Shown piece by piece: positions 1 to 60,205 of a stretch of 64,000 nt of DNA. Under the pieces are notes generated by a model. The model searched no databases and was not told where the DNA came from. It worked only from the letters and a program-made list of their open reading frames with translations. Origin of the DNA: Tubulanus polymorphus (lineage: Eukaryota > Animalia > Nemertea); assembly GCF_964204645.1 (NCBI RefSeq), contig NC_134036.1:8098812-8162811 (forward strand). Direction: 5' to 3'. The translations under genes were made by a program, and so were the position numbers. Position 1 is the first letter of the stretch; each line of letters starts with the position of its first letter.

Positions 1-1
1 A

Positions 2-31376: not shown

Positions 31377-32315
31377 ATGTTCACTAAATTCTTGTTCCTC
31401 GCCTTGATCTTGTTTATTGTCATCGGAGCTATTGAAGGTATATAACCTACTTATTATTAGAGAGAAGTTTTGTGTACTCGGACGTAGTAATAGTATTACA
31501 TGTCAGTTCATATATTTGAGTTGACCATGTTAGCTTATTGGAAGTCGTTGATTATCAATTATGTAGTAATGGCATTCCTCATTAATTCCGATTATACTTG
31601 CATTGATTGAAAACGGTGAATTTTCTAAGTTTTGATGACACCGCCGTTTTTTATCCCATCAGGGTGTGGGAACTATCTCGGATGTTATAAGGACGGCCCT
31701 CAAAGAGATTTGACTAGTCGTGCAGCCGATACAAAGAAAAGAACAATCCAATCATGCGTGCAAACATGTAAGGATAAAGGTAATGACAATTCTACTTGTG
31801 TATTAGACCAAAAGACTATGAGAGGTAAAATGACGAGATTTTGAATTTGACAAGTTCGCCATGGATCACAGCCTTAAGCTCTGCAATGAACCACAAATTG
31901 AACAAAAGTCATTTATGATTCGTGTCTTTCTTGAAATGCGGCGACACAGACAATAGCAACTACTATTTTCAACTATATCTACAATAAAAACTTCGAGAGG
32001 AGGAACGCGTTAACAAAGTTTCCCCAGAATGTGCTTCATAACAGTGTTAAAGTAATAACTACAAATAGACTTTTCACGAACCTTTAGACCCTCACACCTT
32101 TGTTTTTCCGATGAATAATCGTCAAATTTACCTTTTTTTCAGGATATAAATTCGCTGGACTTCAGGCTGGTTGGCAATGTTTCTGTGGTAATCGTGTCGG
32201 CAAGTATGGACCAGCACCAGAATCTCAATGTAACATGAAATGTTTAGCAAACCCAAATGAAACATGTGGAGGCGACTATTGGAAGAATTCCGTATACGTT
32301 ACTTCAATCATGTAA
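31377..32315 (+). CDS. Host gene: secreted 116-aa single-WSC-domain protein (exons 31377-31437, 31663-31779, 32143-32315)
   Basis: Signal peptide [21 protein letters not shown] and two phase-1 GT-AG introns. WSC pattern [56 protein letters not shown] at ~32354. Confidence 0.92.
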
Positions 32316-33339: not shown

Positions 33340-34166
33340 TGAATTATTTCATACAATTTCTATATATGCATCCGGATTTTGGATGTACTGGTGCAATATG
33401 TTGCCAAAAATAAAATCTGATCACCATTCTTTTTAATTCACATGAATTAAAAAGATTTTTAGTACAACGAAAGTCTTCTATAACCTTCATTTGCTTTGCA
33501 GCACATTTTCCCCTATTATCTGTTGATCTCTTTTTCTGCTGGTGTAGTTTTCTCTTTGAACGCAAAGAGTGAGGGAACAGCGTCTGGTATCAAGATTTTC
33601 CTTTCCCCTGAAATTGAAATTTGGACAACACGTTTAAAGATAAAAGCCTTTAAAACTTAAAAAGAGCTTAGTGGTAGATTTTCAGCATATACTTTTCTCA
33701 TGCAAATTTAAACTAACCTTAAAGTTCAGTTTCTCTGTGATCATCCGATTTAAAGTGCTTGTGACAAACAAAGCTACGTTGACCAGGCGACCATAACTTT
33801 CTTTTGTCAGTATTATCGGCTCTTTTTATTGCTACACACCATTCCTTACACAGGTTTTTCTTGGTAGGGAACTTATGTCCCCCTTTGTTATTGCGACCAA
33901 CCACAACACAATAGGCCTAGTCATACATTGTGAAATCTCCGATAATAGCACGAATAACAACATTTGACTTGGATTTTACTTCCGGGTTGTCTCGCAAATC
34001 TCGCAAAAATGGCTCGTGAGAATGGTGCTGAATTTAACCCGGAAATGAATTCAAAGTATAACCGAAATACCTTATGTTCTATTGCATTTGCAATTAAAAT
34101 CTCTCGCTTCAAGTTTTTAGTCAGCGATATTTTACTTATCATACATCGGCACGCATAATCCTTTAA
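33340..34166 (-). mobile_element. THAP-domain transposon remnant, possibly Kolobok-like
   Basis: YCVV..HKFP..EWCVAIKR..WSP..VCHKHF, then an intron, then LIPDAVPSLF (THAP AVP motif). A TTAA|AGG terminus at 34160-34166 on the minus strand suggests Kolobok. The other end was not found. Confidence 0.6.
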
Positions 34167-34329
34167 ATATGATATCCTGACAATGTGATGAATTCGATAA
34201 AACCTCACTTCGAATGCTAAAGATCACTAGAAATGTCAAAGAACCACCAAAAATAACAAATTCAGCGATAACGCTGGAAGCAGCTAATGCAAGTGATGAC
34301 TGGTGCAGGGTGTCATCACTTTGTTGTTG

Positions 34330-34737
34330 AGAGTAATAGGGGTAATAGGCTTTCATACCAAAGGTCGAAAGGTCGAGCTCATTAAAAAACAAATATTAAA
34401 AGTAATTAAAAACTATAATATATTTTCATAACCGCGTGCATTTTATATTAAAACTAAATATTTATTCTAAGATATCAATAATTTAAAAAGCATATTGTAA
34501 ATAAATCAATTGGTCGCTCCGCTTCGCTCCGCTCCGCTCCGCGACCAATTGATTTATTTACAATACACAAATTCATATAATCAAATATATTCAAATAATA
34601 ATAATTATTCTATTATTCAACTGAAATGCACGCGGTTATGAAAATATATTATAGTTTTAAATTACTTTTAATGTTTTGTTATTAATGAGCTCGACCATTC
34701 AACCTTTGATATGAAAGCCCATTACCCCTATTACTCT
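34330..34737. repeat. ~408-bp nested palindrome immediately upstream of the copy C polymerase
   Basis: Outer arms of ~115 bp (AGAGTAATAGGGG..ACCGCGTGCATTT / AAATGCACGCGGT..CCCCTATTACTCT) and a perfect inner stem ATTGTAAATAAATCAATTGGTCGC / GCGACCAATTGATTTATTTACAAT around a (CTCCG)n-like loop. Confidence 0.92.
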
Positions 34738-34815
34738 TAAAATATTCATATAAATGAATAACATTTAAATCATTGAACTTCTAAAATCAATTTTAATAAA
34801 AAATTTAGTATTAAA

Positions 34816-37800
34816 ATGGAAGCAAATAAGTACTACTGTCCAACATGTAATATCAATGTAGATAAATCCCAAAAAGCAAGACACAATAAAACTAAAACAC
34901 ATTTAGAGAATATATTGAAACTAGAATATAAAGATGATATATTAGAAACTAAATTAGAAGAATTAAAGAATGAAAAAGAAACATACAAATGTGATACATG
35001 TAATCAATCATTCAGTGATAAAAGATATTATAATGAACATTTAAAATCTAAAAGTCATATTAGAAATAAGAATAATGATATTTTAGGTGAAGATTATTTT
35101 GATAATGATAACGATAAGAAACAGAAGACAATTAAAAGCATAAAAAATAAATTTACAATAAAAGACCATACATGGAAGATGTAAGAAATTATATTAATTC
35201 ATTAGATAATAAAAAAGATATAGAGATAACCGAAGCATTTAAAAGTGATATTGGTCCAGCAGCTATCGAGTTTAAATTTCATAAAGGAAAAACATTAGAA
35301 GAAAATAAAAAACATTTAGAAAATATGAAAAATATTATAAAAATAATTACAGATGTTGAATATCCTAAAATAAGTATATCAGTTAAAGTAAAGTTTAAAA
35401 AATCTGAAGATAAACCAATATATAATATAAATTCTCATTCACAACATATTATTTCAAAACAACATATAGATGATAAATTAGATAAATGTTATAATGAAGT
35501 AAAAACTAAAATAGAAGAGAACTATTTTGAAGGATCTGGTTTAATATTTGATGAGATAATATTTATGACTACATGTTTATAACACAAAATATAATAAGTT
35601 AACTAAATCAAAACCAATTGATGAAAATAATTTATCATATTTTAAAGAACCTGATATTGAAGCGTCAAGTTATATTAAACTACCATTTAAAACTAATGCT
35701 GTAATAAATGTACAAAATTTTGATAATAAATGTTTTCTATGGGCTATAATAAGTTGTTTACATCCAACAGAAGATATTACACATAGTTTTAGATTAACTC
35801 ATTATAAACCATTTGAAAATAACTATAAGATAGATAAGTATCCTGTTAGAATTAAAAACATCCCAAAAATAGAAAGAGATAATAATATAAAGATAAATGT
35901 ATTTGATTTAATCAAATTACCAAATACAAAAGGTAACAATATAAAACATTATACATTAGAACCTTTATATCTATCAAAAGATTATGATTCAAACGATGTT
36001 ATAGATATATTATATTATGAGAATCATTATATGTGGATTAAACAAATAGATTTATTTTTTAGAACAGAAAGTGATCACCATAATAAAATATATCTATGTA
36101 GAAAATGTTTACATAAATTCAGTAATGAAAGTACATTATTAAATCATAAACAATTATGTGAAAATCATGATTATTGTAAATTAGTTTTACCAAATGAAAA
36201 GGATAAAATATTAGAATTCAAAAAATATGATTACAAAAATAAAGTACCATTTGTAATATATGGAGATTTTGAATCATTAAATAAAGAATTAACTGATCAA
36301 GATAGAAAAGAAATATATTATAAAAGAAAGAAATTAAATTCTAATGAAAATGATTTTTCAGATGAACCACCAAAAACAAATACTATTAAAAAGATTCATC
36401 AATCAGCTGCAGCTTTCGGGTTATATATTAAATCTGATTATCCAGAACTAATTGAAAGTGAATATTATCATTACAGAAATGAAAATGTTATCAATCATTT
36501 TTGTGACTTATTAATTGAATATGAAATAAGATTTAGTAAATTATTGAATACAAATATAGAAATTATAATGACAGAAAAAGATAAAGAAGAATTTGTGTTT
36601 GCAGGTAAATGTTATTATTGTGAAAAGATATTTAATTATAAAGATAAAAAAGTAAGAGACCATGATCATTTGAATGGAAAGTTTAGAGGCGCTGCACATG
36701 AGAATTGTAACTTACAAGCTAAGAAAATTAACTTTGTACCAGTTATATTTCATAATCTATCTGGATATGATGCACATTTATTTATCAAACAGTTATGCCA
36801 TAAAATAGAAGAAATTAATAATGGAATAGAAAGATTAAATTCAAATAGATCAAAAGATAAAATACCAACTTATAAATTTAGAATGTTAGCTAAAACATCT
36901 GAGAATTATATATCATTCCAATTTGGTTGCCTAAGATTTATAGATTCATATAGATTTTTAAATAGTTCATTAGATAACTTATCAAAATCATTAGTTGATG
37001 ATGAATTAAGAATATTAAAGCAACACTACCCAAATAATGATGATTTTCAATTAATGAGATATAAAGGAGCAATTCCATATTCATTTTATAAATCACATAA
37101 TGATTTTAAAATAACTGAATTATTGAAAGAACAATTCTATGATGAATTAAAAAATGAATATGTTAAAGATGAAGTCTATAATAGAACATTGAATATTTGG
37201 AATCATTTCAAAATAGAAAATCATGGGCAATTAGTAGATTTATATTTAAAATCAGATGTATTATTATTAACCGATATATTCGAAAGGTTTAGAGATGTAA
37301 ACCTAAAATATTTCAATATTGATCCTTGTCATTGTTATTCATCACCAGGATTAACATGGGATTGTGGATTAAAATTTACAGATATAAAAATGGATTTGTT
37401 AACAAATATAGATCAATTATTATTATTTGAAAAATCTATAAGAGGAGGTGTTTCAGGTGTATTAGGTGATAGATATTTCAATGTAAATGATAACCCTGGA
37501 TATAAGTTATTATATATAGATGCAAATAATCTATATGGTTGGGCAATGATGGAAACTCAACCTTATGGAGTATTTGAAATAACAGAAGTTTTACAAAATG
37601 AAAATAATGATAAATTTGATTGGAAGAAAAGAATTCTAGATATTGCAGATGATTCAGATACTGGTTACTTCTTTGTTGTAGATTTAGAATATCCTGAACA
37701 TATTAAATTTAAATCTAGAAATCTAGCTTACTGTCCCGAACATAAAACTGTAACTCATGAAGAATTATCATATTATCAAAAAAGAATTAAACCCGAAAAT

Positions 37801-38853
37801 CATATTCATACAGAAAAGTTAATGGTAACTCAAGAAGATAAATATAATTATGTAGTACATTATAGAATGTTAAAGTTTTATTTGAATCAAGGAATGATTC
37901 TAAAAAAAGTACATAGATATATTTCATTTAGTCAATGTAAGTGGTTAGAAAAATATATAGATTTTAACACAAAACAGAGAACTAAAGCTAAAACTGATTT
38001 TGAGAAAGATTTCTTCAAGTTAATGAATAATGCATTCTATGGAAAAACTTGTGAAAATATTAGAAATAGAAATGATATTGAGTTAGTTAGTAATGGTAAA
38101 AGAATTAGACATTTACAATCGTATCCTAAGTTCATTGGTAACAGAATATTTGATGAAAATTTAGCTGCAGTTAAAATGAGAAGAACATCAATGAAATTTA
38201 ATAAACCAATTTATGTTGGTGCTACAGTTTTAGAATTATCAAAATTACTAATGTATGAATTCTATTATAATGTATTACAACCACTTTTTGGAGAAAAACA
38301 TATAGAAATATTATATTTTGATACCGATTCTTACATATTAAAGATAAAAACTGATAACATAACTGATGATTTAAAAACATTAAAACATCATTTTGATTTT
38401 AGTAACTATCCTAAACATCATGAATTGTTTAGCAATGATGATAAAAAAGTTCCCGGTAAATTCAAAGATGAATTAGGTGGTGAAGAAATGATTGAATTTA
38501 TTGGTATTAGATCTAAAATGTATTCATATAAAACTAAAGAACATGAAGCTAAAAAGTTAAAAGGAATAACCAAAAGTGTAGTAGAAAAGAATATTCATTT
38601 CAAAGATTACATCAATTGTATATTCAATGAAGAAGTTAGCAAACATAAGATGAGATGTTTAAGATCTGAAGATCATGAAATGTTTATTGAAGAAATTGAA
38701 AAGATAAGTCCAAACCCATTTGATGATAAAAGATATATTTTAGATGATGGAATTCATACAGTTGCTTATGGTTGCAATTTAGATGAATACTTAAAATTTA
38801 AAAGAGAAGAAACAAAAGAGAACGAGATAATGAAAAGAATTCTAACGTGTTAA
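34816..38853 (+). CDS. Protein-primed family B DNA polymerase (two frameshifts near 35165 and 35570; continuous frame ~35570-38853)
   Basis: Exo I YGDFES, exo II FHNLSGYDAHL, exo III YLKSDV, SIRGG, pol A YIDANNLYGWAM, pol B KLMNNAFYGK and pol C YFDTDS. Endonuclease VII-like CYYC..RDHDHLNGKFRGAAHENCN. Upstream SSYIKLP..DNKCFLWAI..HYMWIK, EGSG motif and two N-terminal zinc fingers. Confidence 0.95.
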
Positions 38854-38882
38854 TCAAATTTTAATAAAAATATGTTATTAAA

Positions 38883-39236
38883 ATGGAGAGTAAACAAGCA
38901 CACAGTGAGAACAACAAATTATTTCTAGATAGAATAAAAGATACTACAAATGTAAAATCTGTAGATTATAAATTCAAAAAGTTAACAGAATTAACAATCC
39001 ATAAGAAATATCTAATTACAAATATTGATACAGTTACTAATAACTATGGAGATAAATTAGTTATACACTTAGAATATGAAGGATTAAAAGGAAATACATA
39101 TAAATTCAGAACATATTTACCGGATAGATTTCATAGATTATCAAGTGAAGATTTAGAAGAATTATGTTCTGGTGATTTCTATTTCGTATACAAAGGTAAG
39201 AATGAAAAAGGTCACCATGAAATAGATTTCGAATGA
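38883..39236 (+). CDS. 117-aa viral protein, possible OB-fold ssDNA-binding protein
   Basis: Present in all copies and directly follows pPolB. Beta-rich with an acidic/aromatic tail (EIDFE). The function is inferred. Confidence 0.7.
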   Translation: MESKQAHSENNKLFLDRIKDTTNVKSVDYKFKKLTELTIHKKYLITNIDTVTNNYGDKLVIHLEYEGLKGNTYKFRTYLPDRFHRLSSEDLEELCSGDFYFVYKGKNEKGHHEIDFE

Positions 39237-39253
39237 GAAAATATGTAAAATAA

Positions 39254-40012
39254 ATGGTAGAATTAAAAGAATACAGAATATTTGTAGATTCTAGAAAACT
39301 TACAAATTATAAATCACATAATTTATTAGTACAATTAGATAGAGAATTTAAGAATTGTGTTGATTTGAAATTAGTAAATATAAGTTTATGTAATTCTTTT
39401 TATAATATATCGAATAAAACTGTTGAACATAGAGCCTTTTTAATTCTTGATAAAAATAAAAATGAATGGGCCTATATATATTTAAAACCGGGGTTATATA
39501 ATTTAGATACATTGGCACAAGAAATTAATAGAAAAGCCTGGCACAAGTCAGGTAATAATTCCGGGTTTAATATTAGATTTTTAAAAAGTGAGAGTTCTAA
39601 CAAAATAAAGATAAGGTTGGCTGATATTGAAAAACATAAGTTTATGGTAAAAAGACCTATAGCTAAACTGTTAGGAATTCCTCCAGATAAATCTTTTACA
39701 AATACTGAAGCTACACCAAACTTAATACCTTTTACACACTTTTATATTTATTGCAATTTAATCGATCCTACAAAAACATTCGAAGCAACTAAAGATATAA
39801 CTTGTAATTCTGGTTTACTAAACATTTTACCATTGAAGAATGTTAAAGAATTTGGAACGCAAATAAATTATAATTTAACAGAATGTGATTTCAAACCATG
39901 CATTCCTCGTTTTAATAATTTTCGATTAGAAATTAGAAATCATAATGGATACTTAATTGATTTAAATAATTTCCCTGTAATTTATGAATTAGTTGTAAGA
40001 TGTAGAGAGTAA
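39254..40012 (+). CDS. Putative minor capsid (penton, single jelly-roll) protein
   Basis: IFVDSR N-terminus, LKPGLYN, LLGI, FYIYCNLI, LLNILP and C-terminal LEIRNHNGYLIDLNNFPVIYEL, the pattern typical of Polinton/virophage mCP. Confidence 0.75.
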   Translation: MVELKEYRIFVDSRKLTNYKSHNLLVQLDREFKNCVDLKLVNISLCNSFYNISNKTVEHRAFLILDKNKNEWAYIYLKPGLYNLDTLAQEINRKAWHKSGNNSGFNIRFLKSESSNKIKIRLADIEKHKFMVKRPIAKLLGIPPDKSFTNTEATPNLIPFTHFYIYCNLIDPTKTFEATKDITCNSGLLNILPLKNVKEFGTQINYNLTECDFKPCIPRFNNFRLEIRNHNGYLIDLNNFPVIYELVVRCRE

Positions 40013-40027
40013 TTTTTTTCACTATAA

Positions 40028-40369
40028 ATGAATATAACTGTTGGACCGAGTATATGTTTTGGGTTTGATTTTAAACATGGTAAAGAAATGAGAATTAAAC
40101 TAAATGATGTCATTACTGATATAAAAAGTAAATCATTTAACAATGCGTCAATGATTGATAAAGAAAATTATAATATAGAAAAAGTAATTGATTTAATTAA
40201 ATCACCTTTAGAATATTATGAATTAAATGAAGATGGAATTATTGAAGATATCAAAAACATATTATCCAAAATATATGATAATCACAAAACTAGTAATGAA
40301 ATAAATGTCGAATTAATCATCACTAAGATAACTAAATATTTTGATGATAGTAATTTTTTTGATAAATAA
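40028..40369 (+). CDS. Viral hypothetical protein (113 aa)
   Basis: Homologues in copies B and D. TAAATG start. Confidence 0.75.
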   Translation: MNITVGPSICFGFDFKHGKEMRIKLNDVITDIKSKSFNNASMIDKENYNIEKVIDLIKSPLEYYELNEDGIIEDIKNILSKIYDNHKTSNEINVELIITKITKYFDDSNFFDK

Positions 40370-40591
40370 ATGAGTGATAATAAGTGGATAATAACTGGAT
40401 TATATAATGGCGCATTACTATCAGTTGGAACTGTTGGTTATTCAATGGTATTAAAAAAAGTATTCAAAATGGGAAGTGTTAATGTTGATAGATTTGATAT
40501 AAATGATATTTTAAAATTAACATTAGCTGTTACTTTTTCTAATTTAACAATTGATTATTTTGAAAAACAAAAATATATTCCTCCCATATAA
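40370..40591 (+). CDS. Small hydrophobic viral protein (73 aa)
   Basis: Two hydrophobic segments. Nearly identical at 53113-53334. Confidence 0.78.
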   Translation: MSDNKWIITGLYNGALLSVGTVGYSMVLKKVFKMGSVNVDRFDINDILKLTLAVTFSNLTIDYFEKQKYIPPI

Positions 40592-40615
40592 ATGCATAAT
40601 TTTTTTACTAAATAA

Positions 40616-41038
40616 ATGGCTTCTGCAATTATAACTATTATAGGATCGGCAATTGTCAACGCTTTAGCATTTACTGGTGGTGGTTATTTATTCAAGCATA
40701 TTGATAAAAATAGTTCATTAGGAGAACAAAGAAGACATAACTTAGCGTTAGAGAAATACAATAAAGCTGCAGGAGAATATAGAGAAAAGAGACAAAACTA
40801 TATGGATTACATCAATAAAGAATTATATGATCAGAAGATTTCACATAGAGATTTTCAATCAGTTGATGATGCAATGAGTTTATATAACGCAGTAACAAAT
40901 AAAGAAAAATTACATCTATACAAACCTAAATTATCAGATTATTATACCCCAAGTAAAGAACAACAGAAATATGAAATAATTTGGATTTTAGGTGGAACAG
41001 TTATTGTTATATTTGTTGCTTATAAGTTTACTAATTAG
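40616..41038 (+). CDS. 140-aa viral membrane protein with ExxRxNxxxE motif
   Basis: Hydrophobic Gly-rich N-terminus, EQRRHNLALE coiled segment and a C-terminal TM. Confidence 0.8.
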   Translation: MASAIITIIGSAIVNALAFTGGGYLFKHIDKNSSLGEQRRHNLALEKYNKAAGEYREKRQNYMDYINKELYDQKISHRDFQSVDDAMSLYNAVTNKEKLHLYKPKLSDYYTPSKEQQKYEIIWILGGTVIVIFVAYKFTN

Positions 41039-41057
41039 TAATTTTTATTCTAAATAA

Positions 41058-41494
41058 ATGGAAGATAAAGTTGATAGTATTGATATTATTCCTCATGATA
41101 TAAATAAAACTAAATTAAAAACATATTTAGAAAAACAAATATTAGAATTTGAAAGTGACTTAAAGATAAAAAAGAAAAAATATTTAAAAAGTAAAATTAT
41201 ATATTATTTGATTATTAGTGGTTCGGTTACAATTAGTTCTGTAATAACATTTCTAGCAATATTCAGTCCATTAACACCTTTAGCTATATCAATTGGTGTG
41301 TTAGGATTAAGTTTAAGTGTTTTAACCGGTATAAGTTCAAAATTAAATATAAAAAGTAATAAAGAAAAAATTAAAACTAATATAAAAGAAATTAATAAAT
41401 TAAAGAATACACTAGATTATTTTTAATTAGTTTAAATGGTCATATAACAGTTGAAGAACAAGATAAATTATTAAAAGAATTAATAAATTATTAA
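41058..41494 (+). pseudogene. Two-TM viral membrane protein (frameshift near 41422)
   Basis: Two hydrophobic helices flanked by basic coiled coil. The C-terminus ISLNGHITVEEQDKLLKELINY is in another frame; its equivalent is in frame in copy B. Confidence 0.75.
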
Positions 41495-41510
41495 TTTTTT
41501 TATTAAATAA

Positions 41511-42899
41511 ATGGTAGCTAGTTTTCCAAAAGCTTTCCAATATAATAAATCAATTAAATATAATATTCCAGCAATAGATTTTAATAAAGATATTACATAT
41601 AGAAATGAAGTTTTAGATTCATTAACCAATTTAGAAATTTATGTTACTGAAACTAATAATTTTAATGCAAAGATGGAAAATATATTTCATGTATATTTAA
41701 TTAATTTTAAAAAATTGAAAGATGAAAAACAATGGTTATTAAAATCTAATATGAAGTATTGGCAGAACCAATTAAATTTTGCTGTTTATTGTGCAACAAC
41801 AGGATGTGGAATAAGTTGGAATGATCATTTGAATAATTCTAAATATAAACTAATTCAAAGTTTATTTAGATTTCATACATACTTTCAAATCAGAATAATA
41901 TTAAATGAATTAGAGTGCGTTTTACCAGGATCAAGATATTTTAAAGAATTAGATAATAATATTAATTTATCAAAGTTTTATAAAATTTGCAATGAATTTA
42001 ATATAGATATAAATAATTCTGATTTTAGAACAAAAATTGGAACAATAAGATCACTTCCTTGCCCTAAAAAGGTTGCAGAATATTGTGCACTTCCCATACC
42101 ATCTAATAGCTTTTATAATATCTATAATAATAAATTAGGTTATGGTAAAATAGAAACAAAGGATTTAGAAACATTAAATTTCAATAAATTACCGAAATTT
42201 TATGATAATTTAAAACAAGAAAACAATAATGGTTGGGTTTATTTTATTTTAGAAAATAGTGAAGGTTTTACTAAATCAGGTATACAAAGAATAAATCAAT
42301 CTATTAGAACTTATTTGATATGTATTTTAGGTGCACAAGTTGAAACAAGATCACCGATAATTGGAAATTTAAATACATCATTTGATACACAGAAACAATT
42401 TAAAGTTTTATTTGAAGATTCCATTCATAATGATAAAAATAGATCGATTCCAGAAAACATTATAAGATATCAAAATTATTTAGATAAATCTCATGTAAGA
42501 CTAAATTATTGCATAGGCCCTAATCTATTAATTATTTCTAATGATTTGGTATTAAAGATGGGAAACATAATTGGTTACAATAATCTAATTAAAACTGCAA
42601 CAATAAATAATTCATTTGGATTAAATGATATAAATAAAAAGATTATTACTGCTCCAAAATTAATGGAAGGTGAAAAAAATAAAAAACATATTCAATCAAC
42701 AAAAACTAAAACTAATAATATTAAATGAAATAATGATTCTAAAATAAAAGATTATAATACATCAGAAGATATAAAAACTGATATTATTCAACATGATATA
42801 ATTAAACTAAATGATGATAATAAATCCCATGAAAATACTAAATTAGCTATAACTTGTATAGGAATTGTAATCGGAGGAATATTATATTTTAAATTTTAA
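41511..42899 (+). CDS. Conserved viral protein (WQNQLNFAVYCATTGCG motif) with C-terminal TM (frameshift near 42726)
   Basis: 405-aa ORF plus an out-of-frame tail ending KLAITCIGIVIGGILYFKF. The tail is in frame in copy B (8927-9274). Confidence 0.78.
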
Positions 42900-42915
42900 T
42901 TTTTTTATTATGTAA

Positions 42916-44578
42916 ATGGATGTAGAAGGTGGAGAAGATATTGGAATGGATACTTTTGATGAACCCAGCATAACTGAAGAACAACCGCCTGATTTTAGTG
43001 AAACAAGTTTTAATGATGATAATGAGCCAGAATATAATACTAATTTAGGTGATGATTATGATGATGATTATGATGATCCCGAATTACGTGAAAAATTTAA
43101 AGAATATATAAAATATACCGGAAGGTTAGTTAATAGAACCACAATATCTAGAAATGATTTAATGGAAAGATTAGAAAATACAACTGATCCTGATATGAAA
43201 TATCAATTAAAATTAATAAAAAATAGTGTAATATATACAGTTGTTAACGAATTATTACCAAAAGATGAAATAGATGAAATTGATACTAAAGGTGTAGTAG
43301 AACAAATTTTAAAAGATGACCCATTTTTAATGAATAATTTAGAATTTAAAGATGATTCATGGCATTATAATCTTGAATTAAATAACAAAAATATATCAAT
43401 TCAATTATCTAGAAAGGATCAAGAAAATCTTTATGAACCTGAAATGCGAGCAAGAAATACAATTGAACGTTCGAAAGGTGGTAGAGAATTTCTCAGAATT
43501 ATATGGAATGCAATCAATAGAATAAATGAAGAAAAACCAATTCCTAAAATTGATATTAACAAATATTCACCATTTGAAAATCCAAATTTAAATCCTCCGG
43601 ATTTTGATCCAGAAATGGAAGATCATAGAGATCGATTAGATAAATTAAGATCTTCAACACCCGAAACATCGAGAAGAGATATTCAACAAATTGATAATGA
43701 TTCAAGTCAATTACAAGTAGTAAAACATTTTGATAAAATGTTTGATACAATTCATTCATTTGACGAAGAGATGAATAGTATTTTAGATACTGAAACTAGA
43801 ATAAATCGAATACAATCTTTACTAGAAAAAGGATTGCTTGATTTAACTGATGATGAATTAGAAGCATTTCCTGAACAAGCACGTAGAGAAATTAAAGGTA
43901 TGCAAGAATCAGCTGGTGAAATTGCTAATATTAAGATGAGATTTTCTAAAATAACCATGTTAGAAAAAGAATTAACTGATGCAAATGAAGAATTAAAACA
44001 ATTAGAATTAAATAGAGATCTTCAAGCTGATTATGAAAGCAGAAAGTTAGCTTTAGAAAAAGAAATAGATGATTTAGAATATAACATAAAATTACAAAAA
44101 GAAGAAAGAGATACATTATTAAAATCATATGATCTTAATCATATTAAAAAAATTAAAAGTTATTTTTAAAGATTTGTTGATTGAACCAGATTCTGAAATA
44201 TCATTGAAAGATAGAATAAAATTATTATTTAAGTCAGAAGGAATAACAATTCTTTTAATTCTAACAGCTGTAACTATGTTATTTACAACAATTGGTTTAG
44301 CTATATCAAATGGTTTGAAATCTACTCCTACTCCCACTCCCAATAAACGAGATAAACCCCCAGGTAATAATTCTATACAAGATAAAGTTAAAGATGGTTT
44401 AAAGAAATTAGCAAAATATTTATGGGAACTATCTAAAAAATCTGCTGCAGCTTTACCTGGAGTTATTGCATCAATTGTTGGTTTTATATTGAAATCTGCA
44501 GGAAACATTATTAACTTTGCTGCTGAACATATTATTTTATTTTTAATAACTGTTGTAAGTGCTATTATTTTTGGGTAG
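42916..44578 (+). pseudogene. Acidic/coiled-coil protein with C-terminal TMs (frameshift in A-run at ~44146)
   Basis: The 417-aa and 149-aa ORFs correspond to one continuous frame in copy A (LLKSYDYNINRLKVIFKDLL). Confidence 0.82.
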
Positions 44579-44647
44579 GTAAATATGATATCAAAAAATA
44601 TCAAGTAAACCTGATACAAAATAAATAATTAATTTATTGTTAAATAA

Positions 44648-45895
44648 ATGAGTGGGAGTTATATCAATCCTTCTAAGAATCATAGAATATCTAATGCTAT
44701 TAAAGCAGAAAGATCACATCGTATAATTACTCATAACCCTTCAAATATTAATCCCGATGAAACTTTATATGTTAGAATTCCTAGATTAACACAAAATACT
44801 TTTTATGTTCCAAATAGTATTTATTTATCAGCCGATATAAAAGTAATCGGTAATAATAATAATTATGTTGTTGATAATGTTGGTAGATATTTGATTAAAA
44901 AGTTAACAATAAAGATTGGTCCAGAAACAGTTTTCTCATTAGATGATTATAATTTATTTATGCATAATAAAGATTTATGGTTAACTAAAGAAAATAGAAA
45001 TAATATGATATTTCAAGGCATCCAATCAGAAAACCAAAATAAATTAAGATCAGAAGCTAATAGCGCAATATTAACTAATGCTGTAGATAAATTGATAAAA
45101 AGTATATATGGAAGCAAATATAAAATTCCATTAGATTTTGAATTGATAAATAATAATGCACCTTTATATAAATACGCAATTCAAGAAGATATTATATTCG
45201 AAATAACGTTTGCTCCTGTAAATGAAATTGTATTATCTAGCGTTGTTAAAGATATGAGTTATAAATTATCGAATATATGTTTAGAATATGATACAGTAAC
45301 TGTTGAAAATATTTCAAGTATAATTCAAACTCAATACAATCAAGGATTTTCATTATTATATGATTATATTGATAAATTTAAAACCGTAACTATTAATGCA
45401 AATGATGAAATAATTAATGAGAATATTAACTTCCCAAGAAGATCTATTAAAGGCATATTAATATTTTTTACCATTGCAACATATACTAATGGCGCAATAA
45501 ATGTTGATAATTATTATAATCCTGAAATAACAAAAGTAGAAATAACTATCGAAGGAATAGCAAATAAAATATTTTGTCAAGGAATGAGAATGATTGATCA
45601 ATGGCCAGAAATTAGAAAACATTTTATGAATGAAAAAGTAAAATCATCTGAAAATTGTAACATTAATCAAATTGATTATTATACCGGTAATAAATACGCA
45701 TTATGGTTAGATTTTAGAACAACAGAGGATAATTCATTACATGGTTCTGGAAAAAAATTACAGAACACTAAAGATGGAATACAATTATTCATGACAAAGA
45801 ATAAAGGAATCAAAAATTTTAAAATGCACATTTATATCATATCAGACGCGCAATTAAATATTGTAAATTCACAATTAGATAGTGTTATGTATTAA
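44648..45895 (+). CDS. Putative double jelly-roll major capsid protein (intact)
   Basis: 415 aa, nearly identical to 974-2221. Confidence 0.72.
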   Translation: MSGSYINPSKNHRISNAIKAERSHRIITHNPSNINPDETLYVRIPRLTQNTFYVPNSIYLSADIKVIGNNNNYVVDNVGRYLIKKLTIKIGPETVFSLDDYNLFMHNKDLWLTKENRNNMIFQGIQSENQNKLRSEANSAILTNAVDKLIKSIYGSKYKIPLDFELINNNAPLYKYAIQEDIIFEITFAPVNEIVLSSVVKDMSYKLSNICLEYDTVTVENISSIIQTQYNQGFSLLYDYIDKFKTVTINANDEIINENINFPRRSIKGILIFFTIATYTNGAINVDNYYNPEITKVEITIEGIANKIFCQGMRMIDQWPEIRKHFMNEKVKSSENCNINQIDYYTGNKYALWLDFRTTEDNSLHGSGKKLQNTKDGIQLFMTKNKGIKNFKMHIYIISDAQLNIVNSQLDSVMY

Positions 45896-45927
45896 AATTT
45901 TAACTCTAATAAAAATATATATAATAA

Positions 45928-47034
45928 ATGGAAGGAGGTAAAGTATATAAACATATTCCATACAACGATACACATGAAAATAATGATGGTTTATATTATA
46001 TAATACCTTGTAATATAGCTTTGATATTTGATCCTATTTTCAAAATTTATAAAACTAAACTAATAGAAATCGATAATAATAAAAGTGAAGTTGTTGATAA
46101 TTTAAGTAATGTAATTGATAATAATGTAATACCTACTACAGTAATACCTACTACATCTAATAATGATAAGATTGAACCTGATATCAAAACCAAAAAGACA
46201 AATGAAAAATATTGTGATGTATGTAAGAAATATATATCATATAAAAATTGGGCATCACATAAGAAATCAAATAAACATATAGAAAAAGAAAAGTATAATA
46301 ATGATAATAATATATCTGATAATAATATAATAGATAATATCATAGATAATGTTAATACAATTGAAACAAATGATACCATAGATAATATAACAGATAATGT
46401 TGATACAATTGAAACTAATGATAATGAAACAATTGATGATTCTAAAAAACTTTGTAACATTTGTAATTTAGATATTTCTAAAAGTAATTTTTCTAAACAT
46501 AAACAATCTCAAGCGCATATCGAAAATGAAAAGAAATTAGAAGAAATAGAAAGAAATAAAATGTGTCAATATTGTAATAAGAAAATTGAACCTGTTGATG
46601 AAAATACTCATTATAAATCAAAGTTACATCTAATTAATGTTTATAAAATGGTGAGTATGATACCATTGTTAAATAACCCAGAGAAATATATCAAATATTT
46701 CAATCCTAAAACTAACCAATATTATATATTCTATAAGTTGTTATTTGATAAATTATTAGCTTATGCAGAAGATAATCCTAAACAAATATATAAATTATTA
46801 TATTTAAGAAAAATAGATTTAAATTATCTGATAACTAATTTTGGATATCATTTTGATTTTGATTATGATGATTTTGATGAATACTTAGAAAAATTAAGAG
46901 AAAAAGCTAATTTACCTACTAATAATTATGTTAAGATGGCTCAATTAAAATTAATAAATCTACCTAAGACTTTTGGTGAATTAGATATAAACAGAGATGA
47001 TTTTATAAATATATTAGAAACAAAATTAGAATAA
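45928..47034 (+). CDS. Viral protein with three C2H2 (matrin/U1-like) zinc fingers
   Basis: CDVC..HKKSNKH, CNIC..HKQSQAH and CQYC..HYKSKLH, separated by D/N/T-rich linkers. Confidence 0.82.
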   Translation: MEGGKVYKHIPYNDTHENNDGLYYIIPCNIALIFDPIFKIYKTKLIEIDNNKSEVVDNLSNVIDNNVIPTTVIPTTSNNDKIEPDIKTKKTNEKYCDVCKKYISYKNWASHKKSNKHIEKEKYNNDNNISDNNIIDNIIDNVNTIETNDTIDNITDNVDTIETNDNETIDDSKKLCNICNLDISKSNFSKHKQSQAHIENEKKLEEIERNKMCQYCNKKIEPVDENTHYKSKLHLINVYKMVSMIPLLNNPEKYIKYFNPKTNQYYIFYKLLFDKLLAYAEDNPKQIYKLLYLRKIDLNYLITNFGYHFDFDYDDFDEYLEKLREKANLPTNNYVKMAQLKLINLPKTFGELDINRDDFINILETKLE

Positions 47035-47037
47035 TTG

Positions 47038-47450
47038 TTATAAAACTAATTTATATAACTATATACTAGACGTACGTAAGAATCTTGGTAAGAATCCAAG
47101 AATCCAAGAAATCTTACTTTCTTGGCAAGAATCTTACTTTCTTACTCGTACGTCTAGTACATAGATATATAATTTAGTTTTCATAAAAATTAAAAACATA
47201 AAATTATTAATCTAAGTATAGAAATAGTTATAATATAATCTATTTTTATTTTTATTAAGAGAAAACATATAATTTATTCATTTTTATAATTTAAATTTAG
47301 AATAATTATTATAAAACTAATTTATATATCTATATACTAGACGTACGTAAGAATTCTTACCAAGATTCTTACTTTCTTACTTTCTTAGCAAGAATCTTAC
47401 TTTCTTACTCGTACGTCTAGTACATAGATATATAATTTAGTTTCTATAAT
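47038..47450. repeat. Two direct copies of a ~140-bp palindrome between the convergent gene blocks
   Basis: AAACTAATTTATATA.CTATATACTAGACGTACG..CGTACGTCTAGTACATAGATATATAATTTAGTTT at ~47043-47180 and ~47313-47443, with AAGAATC/TTCTTAC minirepeats in the loops. Confidence 0.9.
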
Positions 47451-47480
47451 ATTCCAAATTATAAATTTTATTTTATAAAT

Positions 47481-48076
47481 TTATATTTTATATGGAAATT
47501 GTAATCTCAGTAATAATTTTGAACCTTTATTATTCTTTAATTTATTTATATATTCATCATGTAATTCAGTAGGTATAATTTGATTTTCTTCCAATGATTG
47601 TTGCATAGATTTTTTATCTTTATTATAAAATAAAACTAGAAATCTTATATTCTCCCTAAAGTCTTTAACAATTGAATTATATTTTTGATTTAAAACCCAT
47701 GTTGTTATCCCAAAATGTCTCCCAGAGAAAGCTAAATAACATAACTCACTTTCTCTAACTTTTGAATCATGTAAATTTGCGCAATCATCTATAATGAATA
47801 ATGTATTTGATCCTTTATAAGTATCAATTGCTATTTTAATACAATTATCTAAATTTTCTTTCACTGTTTTAGGATCTAATATAATAAACTTTTTTATTTT
47901 AAATCTCTATTATATGTTTTATTCATTTCATAAGTAGGACAGAATAATATTATATTATCAAAATGATTCTTATAAATAGTTTCTAACAAATCTAATATGA
48001 AATGTGTTTTACCACAATTGGTTACTCCAGTTATTAACATATTATGCGGTTCAAATATAAATGAATCTTTATTCAT
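47481..48076 (-). pseudogene. A32/FtsK-type packaging ATPase, frameshifted near 47895
   Basis: Walker A (GVTNCGKT) and Walker B (FIIDD) lie in different frames. The intact homologue is at 2923-3531. Confidence 0.9.
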
Positions 48077-49160
48077 TTATTCTTTTAATTTTACTAGATA
48101 AAATCCATTCATTAAATTTATCATCATATCCTTTATATTTCACCAAAGAATACTTTTTTCCTTTAAGAGTTTTTGTTTTCAATACTTTTTCTATTTTGTA
48201 TTCTATTTCATCTGGATTTGGTACAAGTGATAATTCTTGTTCATAGAAATAACCTAATATTTCTTCATCTTTTAGATCTTCTAGTTTATAAACAAAAGGT
48301 TTAGTTAATATTATCTTTTTAATCTTGAATATTTCTTCTGTAAAATTTGGGGTATAACCTTTATAAAATGTTTTTCTATATTTAGATATTCTTACGTGTT
48401 GTCCTATTTTAAATTTAGGTTCTCCGAAATCATGCGCAACAAACGCGCCATATAAATTATTCCAAACTATTTCTGAATTATCTTCTTTTCTAGCTTGTAT
48501 AGGTTTCATATTTATAGAACTATGTTTAGAATTATTATAACCTTTCACTAAATCATCTAACACATTGATATATTTATATGTTTCATTAGCAGTAAAATAT
48601 TTCCACATTCTAGATTTCAATGTTTTATTAAATCTTTCTATAATAGATGCTTTTTTATCTGAGTGTGTTGAAAAATATTCTACATCGTTATCAGATAATA
48701 GTTTTTTTAAATGTTTGTTATAAAATTCCTTACCTTCATCAAATTGTATCTTATCTGGAATAGCTTCTTTAAATATTGATTTAAAAGCATTTGTTACTTC
48801 TATTCCAGTTTTATTTTTGATTGGAATTGACCATGCGTATCGACTGAATATGTCTATAACATTCAGTATCCAGAAATATCCTTTGCTGTATTCCTCTAAG
48901 TTCTTCATGTCAATTAAATCTGCTTGCCATTGTTGATCGATATATGAAACCATAACTTTTCTCGTTAAATAAGTTTTATCCATTTTCTTGTGGATTTGAT
49001 ATGTTGGTTGATTTTGTAACCATGATTTTAATACACTATATTTTATATCACCATTTTCATTATCAGATTTAATTTTATTCCATAATTCTGAAACGTTAGA
49101 ATATGATACTTCACTTTCTGGGTTATAATATAAATCTCTTAAATATTGTTCTTTTTTCAT
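48069..49160 (-). CDS. Retroviral-type (rve) integrase with C-terminal chromodomain (intact)
   Basis: DDE triad WQADLID / IQFDEGKEF / IIERFNKTLK, then YNNSKHSSI and chromodomain YKIEKVL..LVKYKGYDDKFNEWI. Confidence 0.95.
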   Translation of the reverse strand: MKKEQYLRDLYYNPESEVSYSNVSELWNKIKSDNENGDIKYSVLKSWLQNQPTYQIHKKMDKTYLTRKVMVSYIDQQWQADLIDMKNLEEYSKGYFWILNVIDIFSRYAWSIPIKNKTGIEVTNAFKSIFKEAIPDKIQFDEGKEFYNKHLKKLLSDNDVEYFSTHSDKKASIIERFNKTLKSRMWKYFTANETYKYINVLDDLVKGYNNSKHSSINMKPIQARKEDNSEIVWNNLYGAFVAHDFGEPKFKIGQHVRISKYRKTFYKGYTPNFTEEIFKIKKIILTKPFVYKLEDLKDEEILGYFYEQELSLVPNPDEIEYKIEKVLKTKTLKGKKYSLVKYKGYDDKFNEWILSSKIKRINE

Positions 49161-49166
49161 CTTCTT

Positions 49167-49535
49167 TTAATCCATTAATAATAATTTAGATTTAGTTTCA
49201 ATGGCTTTATGATTTGACTTATTTTCTGGTATGATAGGTTTGTTGTCATTGGAATCATTATTGTTATCAGATTTGAATTTTGATTTATATATTACACCGG
49301 ATAATATAATGACTGTTACTAATCCAATTGTAATATATAATTTATAATTACTTCCAGCATTAGAAGAATCAGATGGATTATTATTTGAATCAATATCAGA
49401 TAATTTCTGTGATTCATTTATATCAGTTAATTTCTTTTTCTTAGCTTTTTTTAATTCTGAAGATCTTCTACCTAATTCTCTTGCCCATTTAATTTGTTTC
49501 TCGGATCTAGCCTTTTTCTTAACTCCATCACTCAT
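49167..49535 (-). CDS. Small basic single-pass membrane protein
   Basis: KQIKWARELG motif and TM LYITIGLVTVIILSGVIY. Homologue of 4355-4723. Confidence 0.78.
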   Translation of the reverse strand: MSDGVKKKARSEKQIKWARELGRRSSELKKAKKKKLTDINESQKLSDIDSNNNPSDSSNAGSNYKLYITIGLVTVIILSGVIYKSKFKSDNNNDSNDNKPIIPENKSNHKAIETKSKLLLMD

Positions 49536-50130
49536 TTATTTTAGTTAATTTTTGTTCTGATTCATTTTCTGTTTCGACGTTTGGTTGTAGTACATCTGTT
49601 TCGTTCTTACCTGATTTATATTCCATAGGCTTGATGTTCGAAAATGTTATGACGCCAGTAGAAATTAATGTCATAACCGATCCTAATTGAAATGAAGCAT
49701 ATCCGACCCATTTTTGTAATTCAGTCATAACTAAGTAGTCATTTTTTAAATCACTATATAATTTATTTTCATCATCAATTGGTATTAACTGGTTACATAA
49801 CTTAGAATAACATTTGACAATACCATTCGAAATAGAATCATTTATTTTAGCTAATCTTGCCTCTTCATAAATCTTAAAATATTTTATTACTTTATCTGGT
49901 TTCATAGCATCTAATTCTTGAAAAGTAATAGTCTTAGTTAAAAATTGTTTACACTTTCCGCTAGCAATTAATAATTCAAGATGATGCTTACAATATAAAT
50001 AGTATTCATAATCTATATTACAATTAACTTGAGCACAATTAGAAACAACTGTATCTTTATTATCACTTATACCTAAATCATCTAATGTCTTTTCAATATC
50101 AATACTATTCTTATTAGATTTCTTTGACAT
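49528..50130 (-). CDS. Conserved viral hypothetical protein (200 aa)
   Basis: Homologue of 3817-4422. TAAATG start. Confidence 0.8.
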   Translation of the reverse strand: MSKKSNKNSIDIEKTLDDLGISDNKDTVVSNCAQVNCNIDYEYYLYCKHHLELLIASGKCKQFLTKTITFQELDAMKPDKVIKYFKIYEEARLAKINDSISNGIVKCYSKLCNQLIPIDDENKLYSDLKNDYLVMTELQKWVGYASFQLGSVMTLISTGVITFSNIKPMEYKSGKNETDVLQPNVETENESEQKLTKINE

Positions 50131-50208
50131 TTATATTAGAGAAATTTAATTAGAAAAATATTATAAGTATTATAAAATGATACTAGCTAGTTAAAACTAA
50201 AGAATTCT

Positions 50209-51600
50209 ATGTAAATGATAACCCTGGATATAAGTTATTATATATAGATGCAAATAATCTATATGGTTGGGCAATGATGGAACCACAACCTTATGGAGTA
50301 TTTGAATTAACTGAAGTTTTACAGAATGAAAATAATGATAAATTTGATTGTAAGAAAAGAATTCTAGATATTGCAGATGATTCAGATACTGGTTACTTCT
50401 TTGTTGTAGATTTAGAATATCCTGAAGATAAAAAATTTAAATCTAGAAATCTAGCTTACTGTCCCGAACATAAAACTGTAACTCATGAAGAATTATCAAA
50501 TTATCAAAAAAGAATTAAACCCGAAAATCATATTCATACAGAAAAGTTAATGGTAACTCAAGAAGATTAATATAATTATGTAGTACATTATAGAATGTTA
50601 AAGTTTTATCTAAAACAAGGAATGGTTCTAAAAAAAGTACATAGATATATTTCATTCAGTCAATCTAAGTGGTTAGAAAAATATATAGATTTTAACACCA
50701 AACAGAGAACTGAAGCTAAAACTGATTTTGAGAAAGATTTCTTCAAGTTAATGAGTAATGCATTCTATGGTAAGACTTGTGAAAATATTAGAAATAGAAA
50801 TGATATTGAGTTAGTTAGTAATGGTAAAAGGATAAGGCATTTACAAACATATCCTAAGTTCATTGGTAACAGAATATTTGATGAAAATTTAGCTGCAGTT
50901 AAGATGAGAAGAACTTCAATGAAATTTAATAAACCAATCTATGTTGGCGCTTCAGTTTTAGAATTATCAAAATTACTAATGTATGAATTCTATTATAATG
51001 TATTACAACCACTTTTTGGAGAAAAACATATAGAAATATTATATTTTGATACAGATTCTTACATATTAAAGATAAAAACTGATAACATAACTAATGATTT
51101 AAAAACATTAAAACATCATTTTGATTTTAGTAACTATCCTCAAGATCATGAATTGTTTAGCAATGATAAGAAAAAAGTTCCAGGGAAGTTTAAGCATGAA
51201 TTAGGTGGTGAAGAAATGATTGAATTCATTGGTATTAGATCTAAAATGTATTCATATAAAACTAAAGAACATGAAGCTAAAAAGTTAAAAGGAATAACCA
51301 AAAGTGTAGTAGAAAAGAATATTCATTTCAAAGATTACATCAATTGTATATTCAATGAAGAAGTTAGAAAACATAAAATGAGATGTTTAAGATGTGAAGA
51401 TCATGAAATGTTTATTGAAGAAATTGAAAAGGTTAGTTTGAATCCATTTGATGATAAAAGATATATTTTAGATGATGGAATTCATACAGTTGCTTATGGT
51501 TGCAATTTAGATGAATACTTAAAATTTAAAAGAGAAGAAACAAAAGAGAACGAGATAATGAAAAGAATTCTAACGTGTTATTCAAATTTTAATAAAAATA
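50209..51600 (+). pseudogene. pPolB 3' half (polymerase domain only; TAA at 50568)
   Basis: YIDANNLYGWAM, KLMSNAFYGK and YFDTDS. Near-identical to 37481-38853. Confidence 0.9.
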
Positions 51601-51610
51601 TGTATTATAA

Positions 51611-51964
51611 ATGGAGAGTAAACAAACACACAGTGAGAACAACAAATCATTTCTAGATAGAATAAAAGATACTTCAAATGTCAAATCAGTAGATTATAAA
51701 TTTAAGAAGTTAACAGAATTAATAATCCATAAGAAATATCTAGTTACAAATATTGATACAGTTACTAACAAATATGGAGATAAATTAGTTATACACTTAG
51801 AATATGAAGGATTAAAAGGAAATACATATAAATTCAGAACATATTTACCAGATAGATTTCATAGATTATCAAGTGAAGATCTAGAAGAATTATGTTCTGG
51901 AGATTTCTATTTCGTATACAAAGGTAAGAATGAAACAGGGCACAATGAAATAGATTTCGAATAA
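51611..51964 (+). CDS. 117-aa viral protein (copy D, intact)
   Basis: Near-identical to 38883-39236. Confidence 0.75.
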   Translation: MESKQTHSENNKSFLDRIKDTSNVKSVDYKFKKLTELIIHKKYLVTNIDTVTNKYGDKLVIHLEYEGLKGNTYKFRTYLPDRFHRLSSEDLEELCSGDFYFVYKGKNETGHNEIDFE

Positions 51965-51981
51965 GAAAATATGTAAAATAA

Positions 51982-52740
51982 ATGGTAGAATTAAAAGAAT
52001 ACAGAATATTTGTTGATTCAAGAAAACTTACAAATTATAAATCTCATAATTTACTAGTACAATTAGATAGAGAATCCAAGAATTGTGTAGATTTAAAATT
52101 AGTAAACATAAGTTTATGTAATTCTTTTTATAATATATCGGATAAAACTATTGAAGATAATTCTGTTTTAATTCATATTAGAAATGTAGATAAATGGTTT
52201 CATCTAATTTTAAAAACAGGATTATATAATTTAGAAACATTAGCTCAAGAAATTAATAGAAGAGCACGGTTGAAAATAAGAAGAGATGATAAATTTTTAA
52301 TTAGATTTATAAAAAGTGATAGCACAAATAAAATTAAATAAAGGTATATGATGAAAGTCAACATGCATTTATGGTAAAAAAAACCTATAGCTAAACTGTT
52401 AGGAATTGTACCAGATACCGTTACAGGAAACGTAGATGGTAATTCAAATATAATACCTTTTACACACTTTTATATTTATTGCAATTTAATCGAGCCTACA
52501 AAAACTTTCGAAGCAACTAAAGATACAATTTGTAATTCTAGTATACTAAATATTTTACCATTAAAAAATGTTAAACAATTTGGAACGCAGATAAATTATA
52601 ATTTAACAGAATGTGATTTTAAACCTTGTATTCCTCAATTTAATAATTTTAAATTAGAAATAAGAAATCATAATGGATATTTAATTGATTTGAATAACTT
52701 TCCTGTAATTTATGAATTAGTTATAAGATGTAGAGAGTAA
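51982..52740 (+). pseudogene. Minor capsid protein gene, disrupted
   Basis: Homologous to 39254-40012. Reading frame broken at ~52340. Confidence 0.8.
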
Positions 52741-55700: not shown

Positions 55701-55952
55701 TTCTATACAAGATAAAGTTAAGGATGGTTTAAAGAAATTAGCAAAATATTTATGGGAACTATCTAAAAAATCTGCTGCAGCATTGCCCGGAGTTATTGCA
55801 TCAAATGTTGGTTTTATATTGAAATCTGCAGGAAACATTATTAACTTTGCTGCTGAACATATTATTTTATTTTTAATTACAGTTGTAAGTGCAATTATTT
55901 TTGGGTTAGTAAACATGATAAAAAATAGATAATTAATTTTGTTGTTAAATAA

Positions 55953-57189: not shown

Positions 57190-57221
57190 AATTTTAACTT
57201 TAATAAAAATTTATATAATAA

Positions 57222-58118
57222 ATGGAAGGAGGTAAAGTATATAAACATATTCCATACATCGATACACATGAAAATAATGATGGTGTATATTATGTAATAC
57301 CTTGTAATATAGCTTTGATATTTGATCCTATTTTCAAAATTAATAAAACTAAACTAATAGAAATCGATAATAATAAAAGTGGTGTTGTTGATAATTTAAG
57401 TAATGTAATTGATAATAATGTAATACCTTCTACATCTAATAATGTAATACCTTCTACATCTAATAATGTAATACCTTCTACATCTAATAATGTAATACCT
57501 ACTACATCTAATAATGTAATACCTTCTACATCTAATAATGCAATAATATTGAATGTTAGTGAAAATAGAAATTATTGTGATTATTGTAAAGGTGAATTTT
57601 CAAACGCTCCATCAAATTGGAATAAACATATGAATACAAGGGTACATATTACTAATGTTATAGAACGTGTTGGTTTAAGAGAATTTATAGAACACCCATT
57701 TAGATATGTTACAAAATTTGTTTCAAATAAAAAAGTAAATGGTAAAGAATTATATTAATTTTTATTAGCAACACCGAATAAAGATGAATTAGATTTAACC
57801 GATGCTAATGAAATATTAGGATCAAACACTGTAAATGAAATATTAGGAGCAAACACTTATAAAGATGATAATGAAAATGGTGCCATACGGCACCCACATG
57901 GTGATATAGTTACAGATATTGATAATAAAGATTCTATGAAACATAAAGTAGAAAATAATGATAAATTTGATTGGACGAATAAGCATAACAATGAAACAAC
58001 TATTGATGATGCGGTAAAAGGGGTGAAGAATAAGTATAAAAATAATGAAGAATTAGAAGAAGATTCGATAGAGCATTTGAATAAATTGTTAGGGGGGTCT
58101 GATAGTGAAAGTGATTAA
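57222..58118 (+). pseudogene. Zinc-finger protein variant with NNVIPSTS tandem repeats
   Basis: First ~69 aa as in 45928. Five 24-bp repeats at ~57414-57535, one CDYC..HMNTRVH finger and an unrelated C-terminus. Break at 57758. Confidence 0.7.
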
Positions 58119-58149
58119 GATATTAATTATATTTAACTCAAAAAGTAAT

Positions 58150-58500: not shown

Positions 58501-58515
58501 TAGATATATAAATAG

Positions 58516-60199: not shown

Positions 60200-60205
60200 C
60201 TTATT

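Follow-up and report, generated by a model that had tools for sequence, protein, structure and literature searches.

TAAATG at the gene starts of a Maverick lineage, a possible late promoter read by a co-infecting large DNA virus

Closest described systems and the identity of the element

The virophage mavirus is described as having late promoters throughout, with one promoter motif across its genes (10.1101/068312), and EMALE provirophages carry type-specific motifs matched to their helper viruses (PMC10945749), according to the accessible parts of both sources. Here we describe an endogenous viral element, designated copy C, in a window of 64,000 nucleotides (nt) from the nemertean Tubulanus polymorphus (contig NC_134036.1, positions 8,098,812 to 8,162,811, forward strand; coordinates below count from the first base of this window), which also contains three further copies (A, B and D). 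Most genes of copy C start at TAAATG. Judging from the sequence, we give slightly better than even chances to the reading that in this Maverick lineage TAAATG serves as a late promoter for the transcription machinery of a co-infecting large DNA virus, which would make the element a satellite of the virophage type.

By its gene content, copy C is a Maverick rather than a Polinton-like virus, the label that the first-pass annotation of the window had given it, because it has pPolB, an rve integrase, an A32 ATPase and a double jelly-roll capsid, the set that defines Mavericks in the accessible part of PMC11296320. The pPolB matches Pfam DNA_pol_B_2 (E 4e-14), the integrase matches rve (PF00665, E 1e-8) and carries a chromodomain, and the ATPase was identified in copy A (PF04665, E 2.5e-13). 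The model of the 415-amino-acid (aa) capsid protein has a predicted local distance difference test score (pLDDT) of 87, and Foldseek relates it to the capsids of PBCV-1, SGIV and mavirus (E 1e-16 to 3e-10); the resemblance to virophage-type capsids is at the fold level, with ~11% identity. The element shares these four modules and its many integrated copies with the Maverick/Polinton elements (Polintoviricetes), but differs from them in its lineage-wide TAAATG starts and in that no cysteine or adenovirus-type protease was matched by Pfam among the copy C proteins.

Like mavirus and the EMALE provirophages of Cafeteria, the element is an integrase-bearing endogenous virus with a single promoter motif across its genes. 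For mavirus, the CroV helper, silence, reactivation and protection have been shown in a protist; the present element has a different motif and an animal host. The entomopoxvirus-associated Polinton-like viruses (PMC11296320) are likewise small capsid-encoding elements, and have been proposed as hyperparasites of animal poxviruses. Compared by their description only, as given in the accessible part of that paper, they are found in occlusion bodies, measure ~12 kb, encode a protease, and have a tyrosine recombinase or no integrase; the words "promoter", "TAAAT" and "motif" do not occur in its main text. In vaccinia, late promoters have TAAAT(G) over the start codon and a conserved T 10 nt upstream (PMC11980589), and intermediate promoters have TAAA with an A-preferring upstream region (PMC11980589, PMC5294985; both sources in their accessible parts). 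The element resembles them in TAAAT(G) over the start codon, a T ~10 nt upstream and an A-rich TAAA variant; its T peak lies at 9 rather than 10 nt, and the likeness is one of sequence. The yeast cytoplasmic linear plasmids (pGKL) also have pPolB, a TAAAN initiator and poly(A) leaders produced by slippage, but they carry genes for an RNA polymerase and a capping enzyme of their own and lack capsid and integrase (PMC6211774, accessible part). Helper-matched promoters are already known for protist virophages. No description of TAAATG in Mavericks was found in a search of mainly openly accessible literature, supplements aside, and the accessible parts of PMC11071308 and of the egovirus preprint contain nothing on promoters.

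TAAATG in copy C and across its capsid lineage

TAAATG stands at 12 of the 15 gene starts of copy C, nine on the plus strand and three on the minus strand. The exceptions are pPolB (34816) and the 117-aa gene (38883), which start at TAAAATG, and the integrase (49160), which has neither form. All of these positions agree with the first-pass annotation. The features of the window are as follows (ORF, open reading frame; MITE, miniature inverted-repeat transposable element).

34327–34747, unstranded: imperfect palindrome of ~420 bp at the left end of copy C (z −23.9), a subterminal hairpin or a separate MITE-like element
34816–38853, plus strand: pPolB (DNA_pol_B_2), in three pieces in its N-terminal part; TAAAATG start behind an A-rich element
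38883–39236, plus strand: 117-aa gene, possibly a single-stranded DNA-binding protein (weak atlas lead to Phi29 SSB); TAAAATG start
39254–40012, plus strand: 252-aa gene, candidate minor capsid protein (weak DUF5901; 21-member cluster in the loci); TAAATG
40028–41426, plus strand: four small genes (ORFs of 113, 73, 140 and 122 aa), each with T-tract and TAAATG
41511–42728, plus strand: conserved 405-aa gene (26 homologs in the loci); T-tract and TAAATG
42916–44578, plus strand: coiled-coil/membrane gene, two ORFs in copy C and a single 485-aa gene in the relative L003; T-tract and TAAATG
44648–45895, plus strand: double jelly-roll major capsid protein (structure model and Foldseek); TAAATG
45928–47034, plus strand: 368-aa zinc-finger protein, differing among copies; A-rich element and TAAATG
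47475–48076, minus strand: A32-type packaging ATPase, broken in copy C and intact (202 aa) in copy A; TAAATG within the end of the integrase frame
48069–49160, minus strand: rve integrase with chromodomain; copies C and D lack the motif, and copy A (2252) and the relative L001 have TAAATG
49167–50130, minus strand: two genes (122 and 200 aa), both with TAAATG, the first start lying within the end of the second gene's frame
50205–61308, plus strand: copy D, a decayed partial tandem duplicate beginning inside pPolB (self-BLAST ~90%)
1–4723, plus strand: copy A, partial, with the integrase-ATPase block differently oriented and five TAAATG starts (self-comparison)
8044–14065, minus strand: copy B, decayed, inverted and partial (self-comparison)

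TAA precedes 37 of the 618 non-start ATGs of copy C (6.0%; P(≥12/15) = 8e-13). In shuffled DNA, with a start defined as the first ATG following a stop, it precedes 514 of 6636 starts (7.7%; P = 1.7e-11). When the 40-nt upstream windows were shuffled 100,000 times, such starts numbered 1.25 of 15 on average and never more than 7. In the host DNA at 14100–34300, TAA precedes 16 of 753 ATGs. Enrichment over a composition-matched background had been set beforehand as a test, and it held at a P of about 1e-11 or lower. As the first-pass annotation had also claimed, stop-start coupling explains a minority of the starts: an in-frame coupling accounts for one of the 12, and two of the TAAATG starts sit in the frame of the upstream gene, where TAA is not a stop. 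Its statement that most starts follow a T-run was too strong. At least six T in 7 nt precede six of the 12 TAAATG starts, compared with two of the 37 non-start TAAATG sites in copy C, and the remaining starts are A-rich or mixed upstream. Among six starts attributed to copy A, the five on the plus strand (974, 2252, 2923, 3817 and 4355) are right, but the one at 6052, on the minus strand, belongs to a distinct piece of a 117-aa-type gene that lies outside copy A.

A capsid profile search gave 83 loci, comprising the best 80 of 168 metagenome matches and three more. In a quick tree of 74 of these capsids, with short fragments left out, the window copies fall in an 18-row clade (SH-aLRT 96). Gene starts were counted mechanically as the first ATG of ORFs of at least 90 aa after removal of near-duplicates, which may be wrong in some GC-rich loci; on this count TAAATG is found at 61 of 75 starts in the window's capsid clade (window included) and at 5 of 281 in the other relatives. 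A second set of nine further loci, which were grouped after the motif had been seen, has it at 19 of 21 starts. Sixteen AT-rich loci outside the motif sets have TAAATG at 1 of 53 starts and AAAATG at 27, and clade members of at least 29% GC still have TAAATG at 22 of 28. The motif is retained at 20–44% GC and where the order of the genes has changed, and accessory genes have it too, for example a deoxynucleoside kinase; stop-start coupling occurs at 3 of 71 starts across the loci. Three loci of the second set (L048, L071 and L072) fall in a 31-row group of the tree whose branching is unresolved and which includes motif-negative rows, so one origin of the motif cannot be distinguished from several. 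Scans of viral contigs with the capsid gave no relative, and exact promoter patterns occurred in viral contigs at 21 and 2 scattered loci, most of which do not use TAAATG generally at their starts.

Architecture of the signal and the machinery that may read it

Over the 61 clade starts the signal is bipartite: positions −18 to −16 are rich in A, and a T peak, a looser spacer and an AT-rich run into TAAATG follow. The frequency of T is 0.75 at 10 nt and 0.89 at 9 nt before TAAAT. A matrix built from 52 starts in relatives separated the 12 copy C starts from 37 other TAAATG sites (P 2.5e-6). Divergent gene pairs in motif-positive loci have TAAATG on both sides in eight of nine cases, two of them with 14–15 nt between the ATGs. 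Fifteen ORFs in these loci lack TAAATG: seven are internal fragments and one has no homolog, and in five of the remaining seven TAAAT is kept within 2 nt of the ATG. The −3 position is T in 63 of the 75 clade starts, compared with a purine in 209 of the 281 other starts. Polymerase slippage at TAAAT yields a poly(A) leader (PMC6211774), and we infer that such a leader would lift the penalty of T at −3. The replication genes and the integrase (in copy A and L001) also bear the TAAA(T) initiator. Because the motif is lineage-wide and bipartite, stands on both sides of divergent pairs and on replication as well as structural genes, and is accompanied by T at −3, its apparent role as a transcription initiator of the poxvirus or giant-virus post-replicative type is supported. 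In copy C, the pPolB, 117-aa and zinc-finger genes have an A-rich element in common and the structural block has mostly T-tracts. This division recalls the intermediate and late classes of vaccinia, as a resemblance and no test; the motif on the replication genes and the integrase appears to fit a mavirus-like all-late satellite better.

No copy C protein has a Pfam match to a polymerase, TBP, TFIIB or VLTF, which agrees with the earlier statement that no RNA polymerase is encoded and leaves room for a divergent factor. The largest protein without an assigned function (405 aa) is predicted to be helical, unlike TBP. A scan for the divergent-pair pattern in 8 of the 64 parts of a viral collection gave 121 loci, 76 of them with at least four ORFs. 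One locus, L109, is a giant virus; among solved structures its capsid is closest to that of an iridovirus (E 6e-113), and TAAATG stands at 9 of its 12 starts. In 79 loci of its relatives TAAATG stands at 107 of 671 starts, and in a tree of 52 loci with at least seven ORFs one eight-row clade of uncultured iridovirus-related giant viruses has it at 50–88% of starts, unlike most sister lineages; since L109 was chosen by the motif, these figures show existence and not frequency. The TAAATG-using loci are L109, L229–L233, L241, L244 and L246. In Amsacta moorei entomopoxvirus, TAAATG is found at 10 of 21 starts. The proposal that the helper must be pox-like was therefore not borne out, and TAAATG was rejected as a pox-specific signal that could name the helper, because the iridovirus-related clade starts its genes likewise. 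The signal points to post-replicative transcription of a large DNA virus, with vaccinia as the best textual match.

If TAAATG is indeed a late promoter read by a co-infecting virus, that helper would supply late transcription, and every gene would be a late gene, transcribed from TAAAT into mRNA with a poly(A) leader. The pPolB and the capsid module would replicate and package the element alongside the helper, and the integrase would deposit germline copies. The helper may be a poxvirus or another member of the Nucleocytoviricota, for example an iridovirus-related one; within this reading, we put a true poxvirus at somewhat under an even chance. The difficult step would be the first reading of a nuclear copy by cytoplasmic machinery. 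For mavirus, entry of a helper factor into the nucleus has been proposed, also as a hypothesis (10.1101/068312, accessible part), and nothing was found in the literature searched on a chromosomal vaccinia promoter activated by infection.

A broader and doubtful extension is that an animal Maverick lineage gave up host transcription. Its members would have become heritable satellites of a pathogen resembling a poxvirus or an iridovirus. Their dozens of germline copies would stay silent until the late machinery of the helper reached them, and they would form an inducible antiviral system in the style of mavirus. If so, the promoter predicts an undescribed large DNA virus of this host. The motif bears on what activates animal Mavericks and on possible virophage behaviour among them, and a lineage-wide, position-fixed signal would serve as a sequence tag for sorting Mavericks into helper-dependent and autonomous types.

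A number of observations weigh against a helper virus. Transcription of the pox type is cytoplasmic, and ~40 integrated copies require nuclear access. The signal is short and AT-rich, it is common to several large DNA viruses, and none of these is tied to this host as a helper. Its upstream profile correlates modestly (0.19–0.45) with that of the iridovirus-related viruses, whose clade lacks the sharp T peak, and poorly (r 0.03) with the entomopoxvirus sample, which is too small to judge (n 10). Most control sites of the matrix are in coding DNA, and the separation it gives is therefore due in part to composition; spacers between divergent genes are compact in motif-negative relatives as well, and the late grouping of the second set counts on the same side. 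The first-pass annotation had also invoked TTTTTNT, the early terminator of poxviruses. This word occurs 6 times in copy C compared with 9.6 expected, but its reverse complement is also depleted in close relatives; we rejected it as a terminator signal, because the depletion belongs to a wider avoidance of homopolymers that affects both strands. Transcription of coral polintoviruses is described in the accessible part of PMC11131425, which reports no helper. A motif-negative relative, L054, encodes a VLTF3-like protein (L054:5082–5579, E 3.6e-5) and has TATA within 40 nt upstream of 8 of its 11 starts. This Maverick family can thus carry factors of its own, and the clade of the window is known from partial loci.

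The last point leads to the alternative of an autonomous nuclear virus, in which host RNA polymerase II, with a host factor or one encoded by the element, would use the T-tract and TAAAT as the element's own compact promoter and initiator. We consider this, the main rival, rather unlikely. It would account for the integrase and the ~40 nuclear copies, and it is consistent with the factor gene of L054, with the upstream words of their own that other clades have, and with the several copy C genes that have no assigned function. However, the L054 protein has no tblastn match in the window or the clade, and the Pfam negatives and the helical 405-aa model described above provide no substitute for it, a divergent factor aside. 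The signal moreover overlaps the ATG, leaving no templated leader, and it marks replication genes too. AATAAA is not avoided in the coding strands (47 observed, 45.7 expected), although its avoidance in motif-negative relatives is weak too, and we discarded it as a discriminator because that contrast is too weak.

A role in translation, in which an in-frame TAA before the ATG would serve re-initiation or block read-through on long polycistronic RNAs, appears improbable. TAA does stand in frame directly ahead of ATG, and the genes are closely packed, with gaps of 0–32 nt at seven of the nine plus-strand junctions of copy C. Yet the motif occurs on both sides of divergent pairs and inside the coding frames of upstream genes, in which TAA does not act as a stop, TAAAT is retained when the ATG shifts, and the motif is linked to a spaced upstream element. 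Composition alone, or a relic without a present role, is very improbable, even though the element has a GC content of ~23% and all four window copies are partial or decayed: the matched nulls, together with the contrast between the clade members of at least 29% GC and the AT-rich relatives outside, largely refute it. The late promoter read by a co-infecting large DNA virus is the explanation we prefer.

Copy number, decay and minor genes

Copy C is decayed. Its pPolB, mapped against the 1363-aa relative P0177, is in three frame pieces, and its ATPase and one membrane gene are split. As to terminal inverted repeats and a target-site duplication, the right end has been replaced by copy D, and the left end has the palindrome, whose nature is ambiguous. 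Raw DNA reads came from a second sample labelled as the same species, and about 12 in every 100 reads of its run were used. Their summed depth is ~420–1030 over most of the element body and 13–31 in the flank, from which the ~40 integrated copies were estimated; depth is low over 46122–47349, the zinc-finger region. Contigs of three other runs contain only short pieces of the element, the longest being 171 and 312 nt, with 83–90% identity.

In the same reads, the palindrome at 34327–34747 has about twice the depth of the element body and mixed flanks. A mini-palindrome of 124 bp (14191–14314) adjoins copy B and has ends similar to those of the 420-bp palindrome; both are either subterminal Maverick hairpins or a MITE-like family. 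The segment 34074–34330, which adjoins the larger palindrome, is of high copy number (depth ~960) and in most copies runs into one conserved sequence that is absent here; it is possibly an outer terminal repeat or another transposon. Read joints in 34758–50323 connect the promoters of pPolB, the 117-aa gene and the zinc-finger gene in alternative arrangements, which suggests gene-order variants among copies, or mapping across the common upstream element. In the flanks, domains were matched in 5 of 79 frames. The host side (18660–21983, 24189–24380, 31629–32312 and 33722–33916) contains a KDZ-type transposon remnant (CxC4), a retrotransposon integrase tail, WSC-domain exons and a THAP domain.

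Profile searches of the PDB with the 200-, 252- and 117-aa families gave no match. Rfam had no match either. As to a penton, the 252-aa gene has a weak match to DUF5901 (E 0.003). The Phi29 SSB lead for the 117-aa gene scores 0.85, with this family making up 44% of the cluster concerned, and is without PDB support; the gene starts at TAAATG in copy D, and its upstream element in copy C is almost identical to that of pPolB. The 405-aa protein, whose mostly helical model has a pLDDT of 73.8, has no fold match (best Z 4.1), which does not establish a new fold. Two adenovirus capsid chains are among the weak structural matches to its residues 267–328, with Z of 4.1 and 3.4, below significance.

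In relatives, a deoxynucleoside kinase (L003:10340–10981) of the close relative L003 shows no trace of a donor virus, and is also found fused to a pPolB fragment in P0190. At L044:9967–13596, a 1209-aa gene with helicase-like AAA domains occupies the position of pPolB in the other loci, a swap of the replication module. The 122-aa product of 41058–41426 is a weakly SLATT-like protein with two membrane helices (SLATT_fungal, E 0.16 here and 0.0013 in the L003 homolog) and may act in pore formation or as an effector of abortive infection; the accessible part of 10.64898/2026.10.13.758929 mentions SLATT genes in this virus group.

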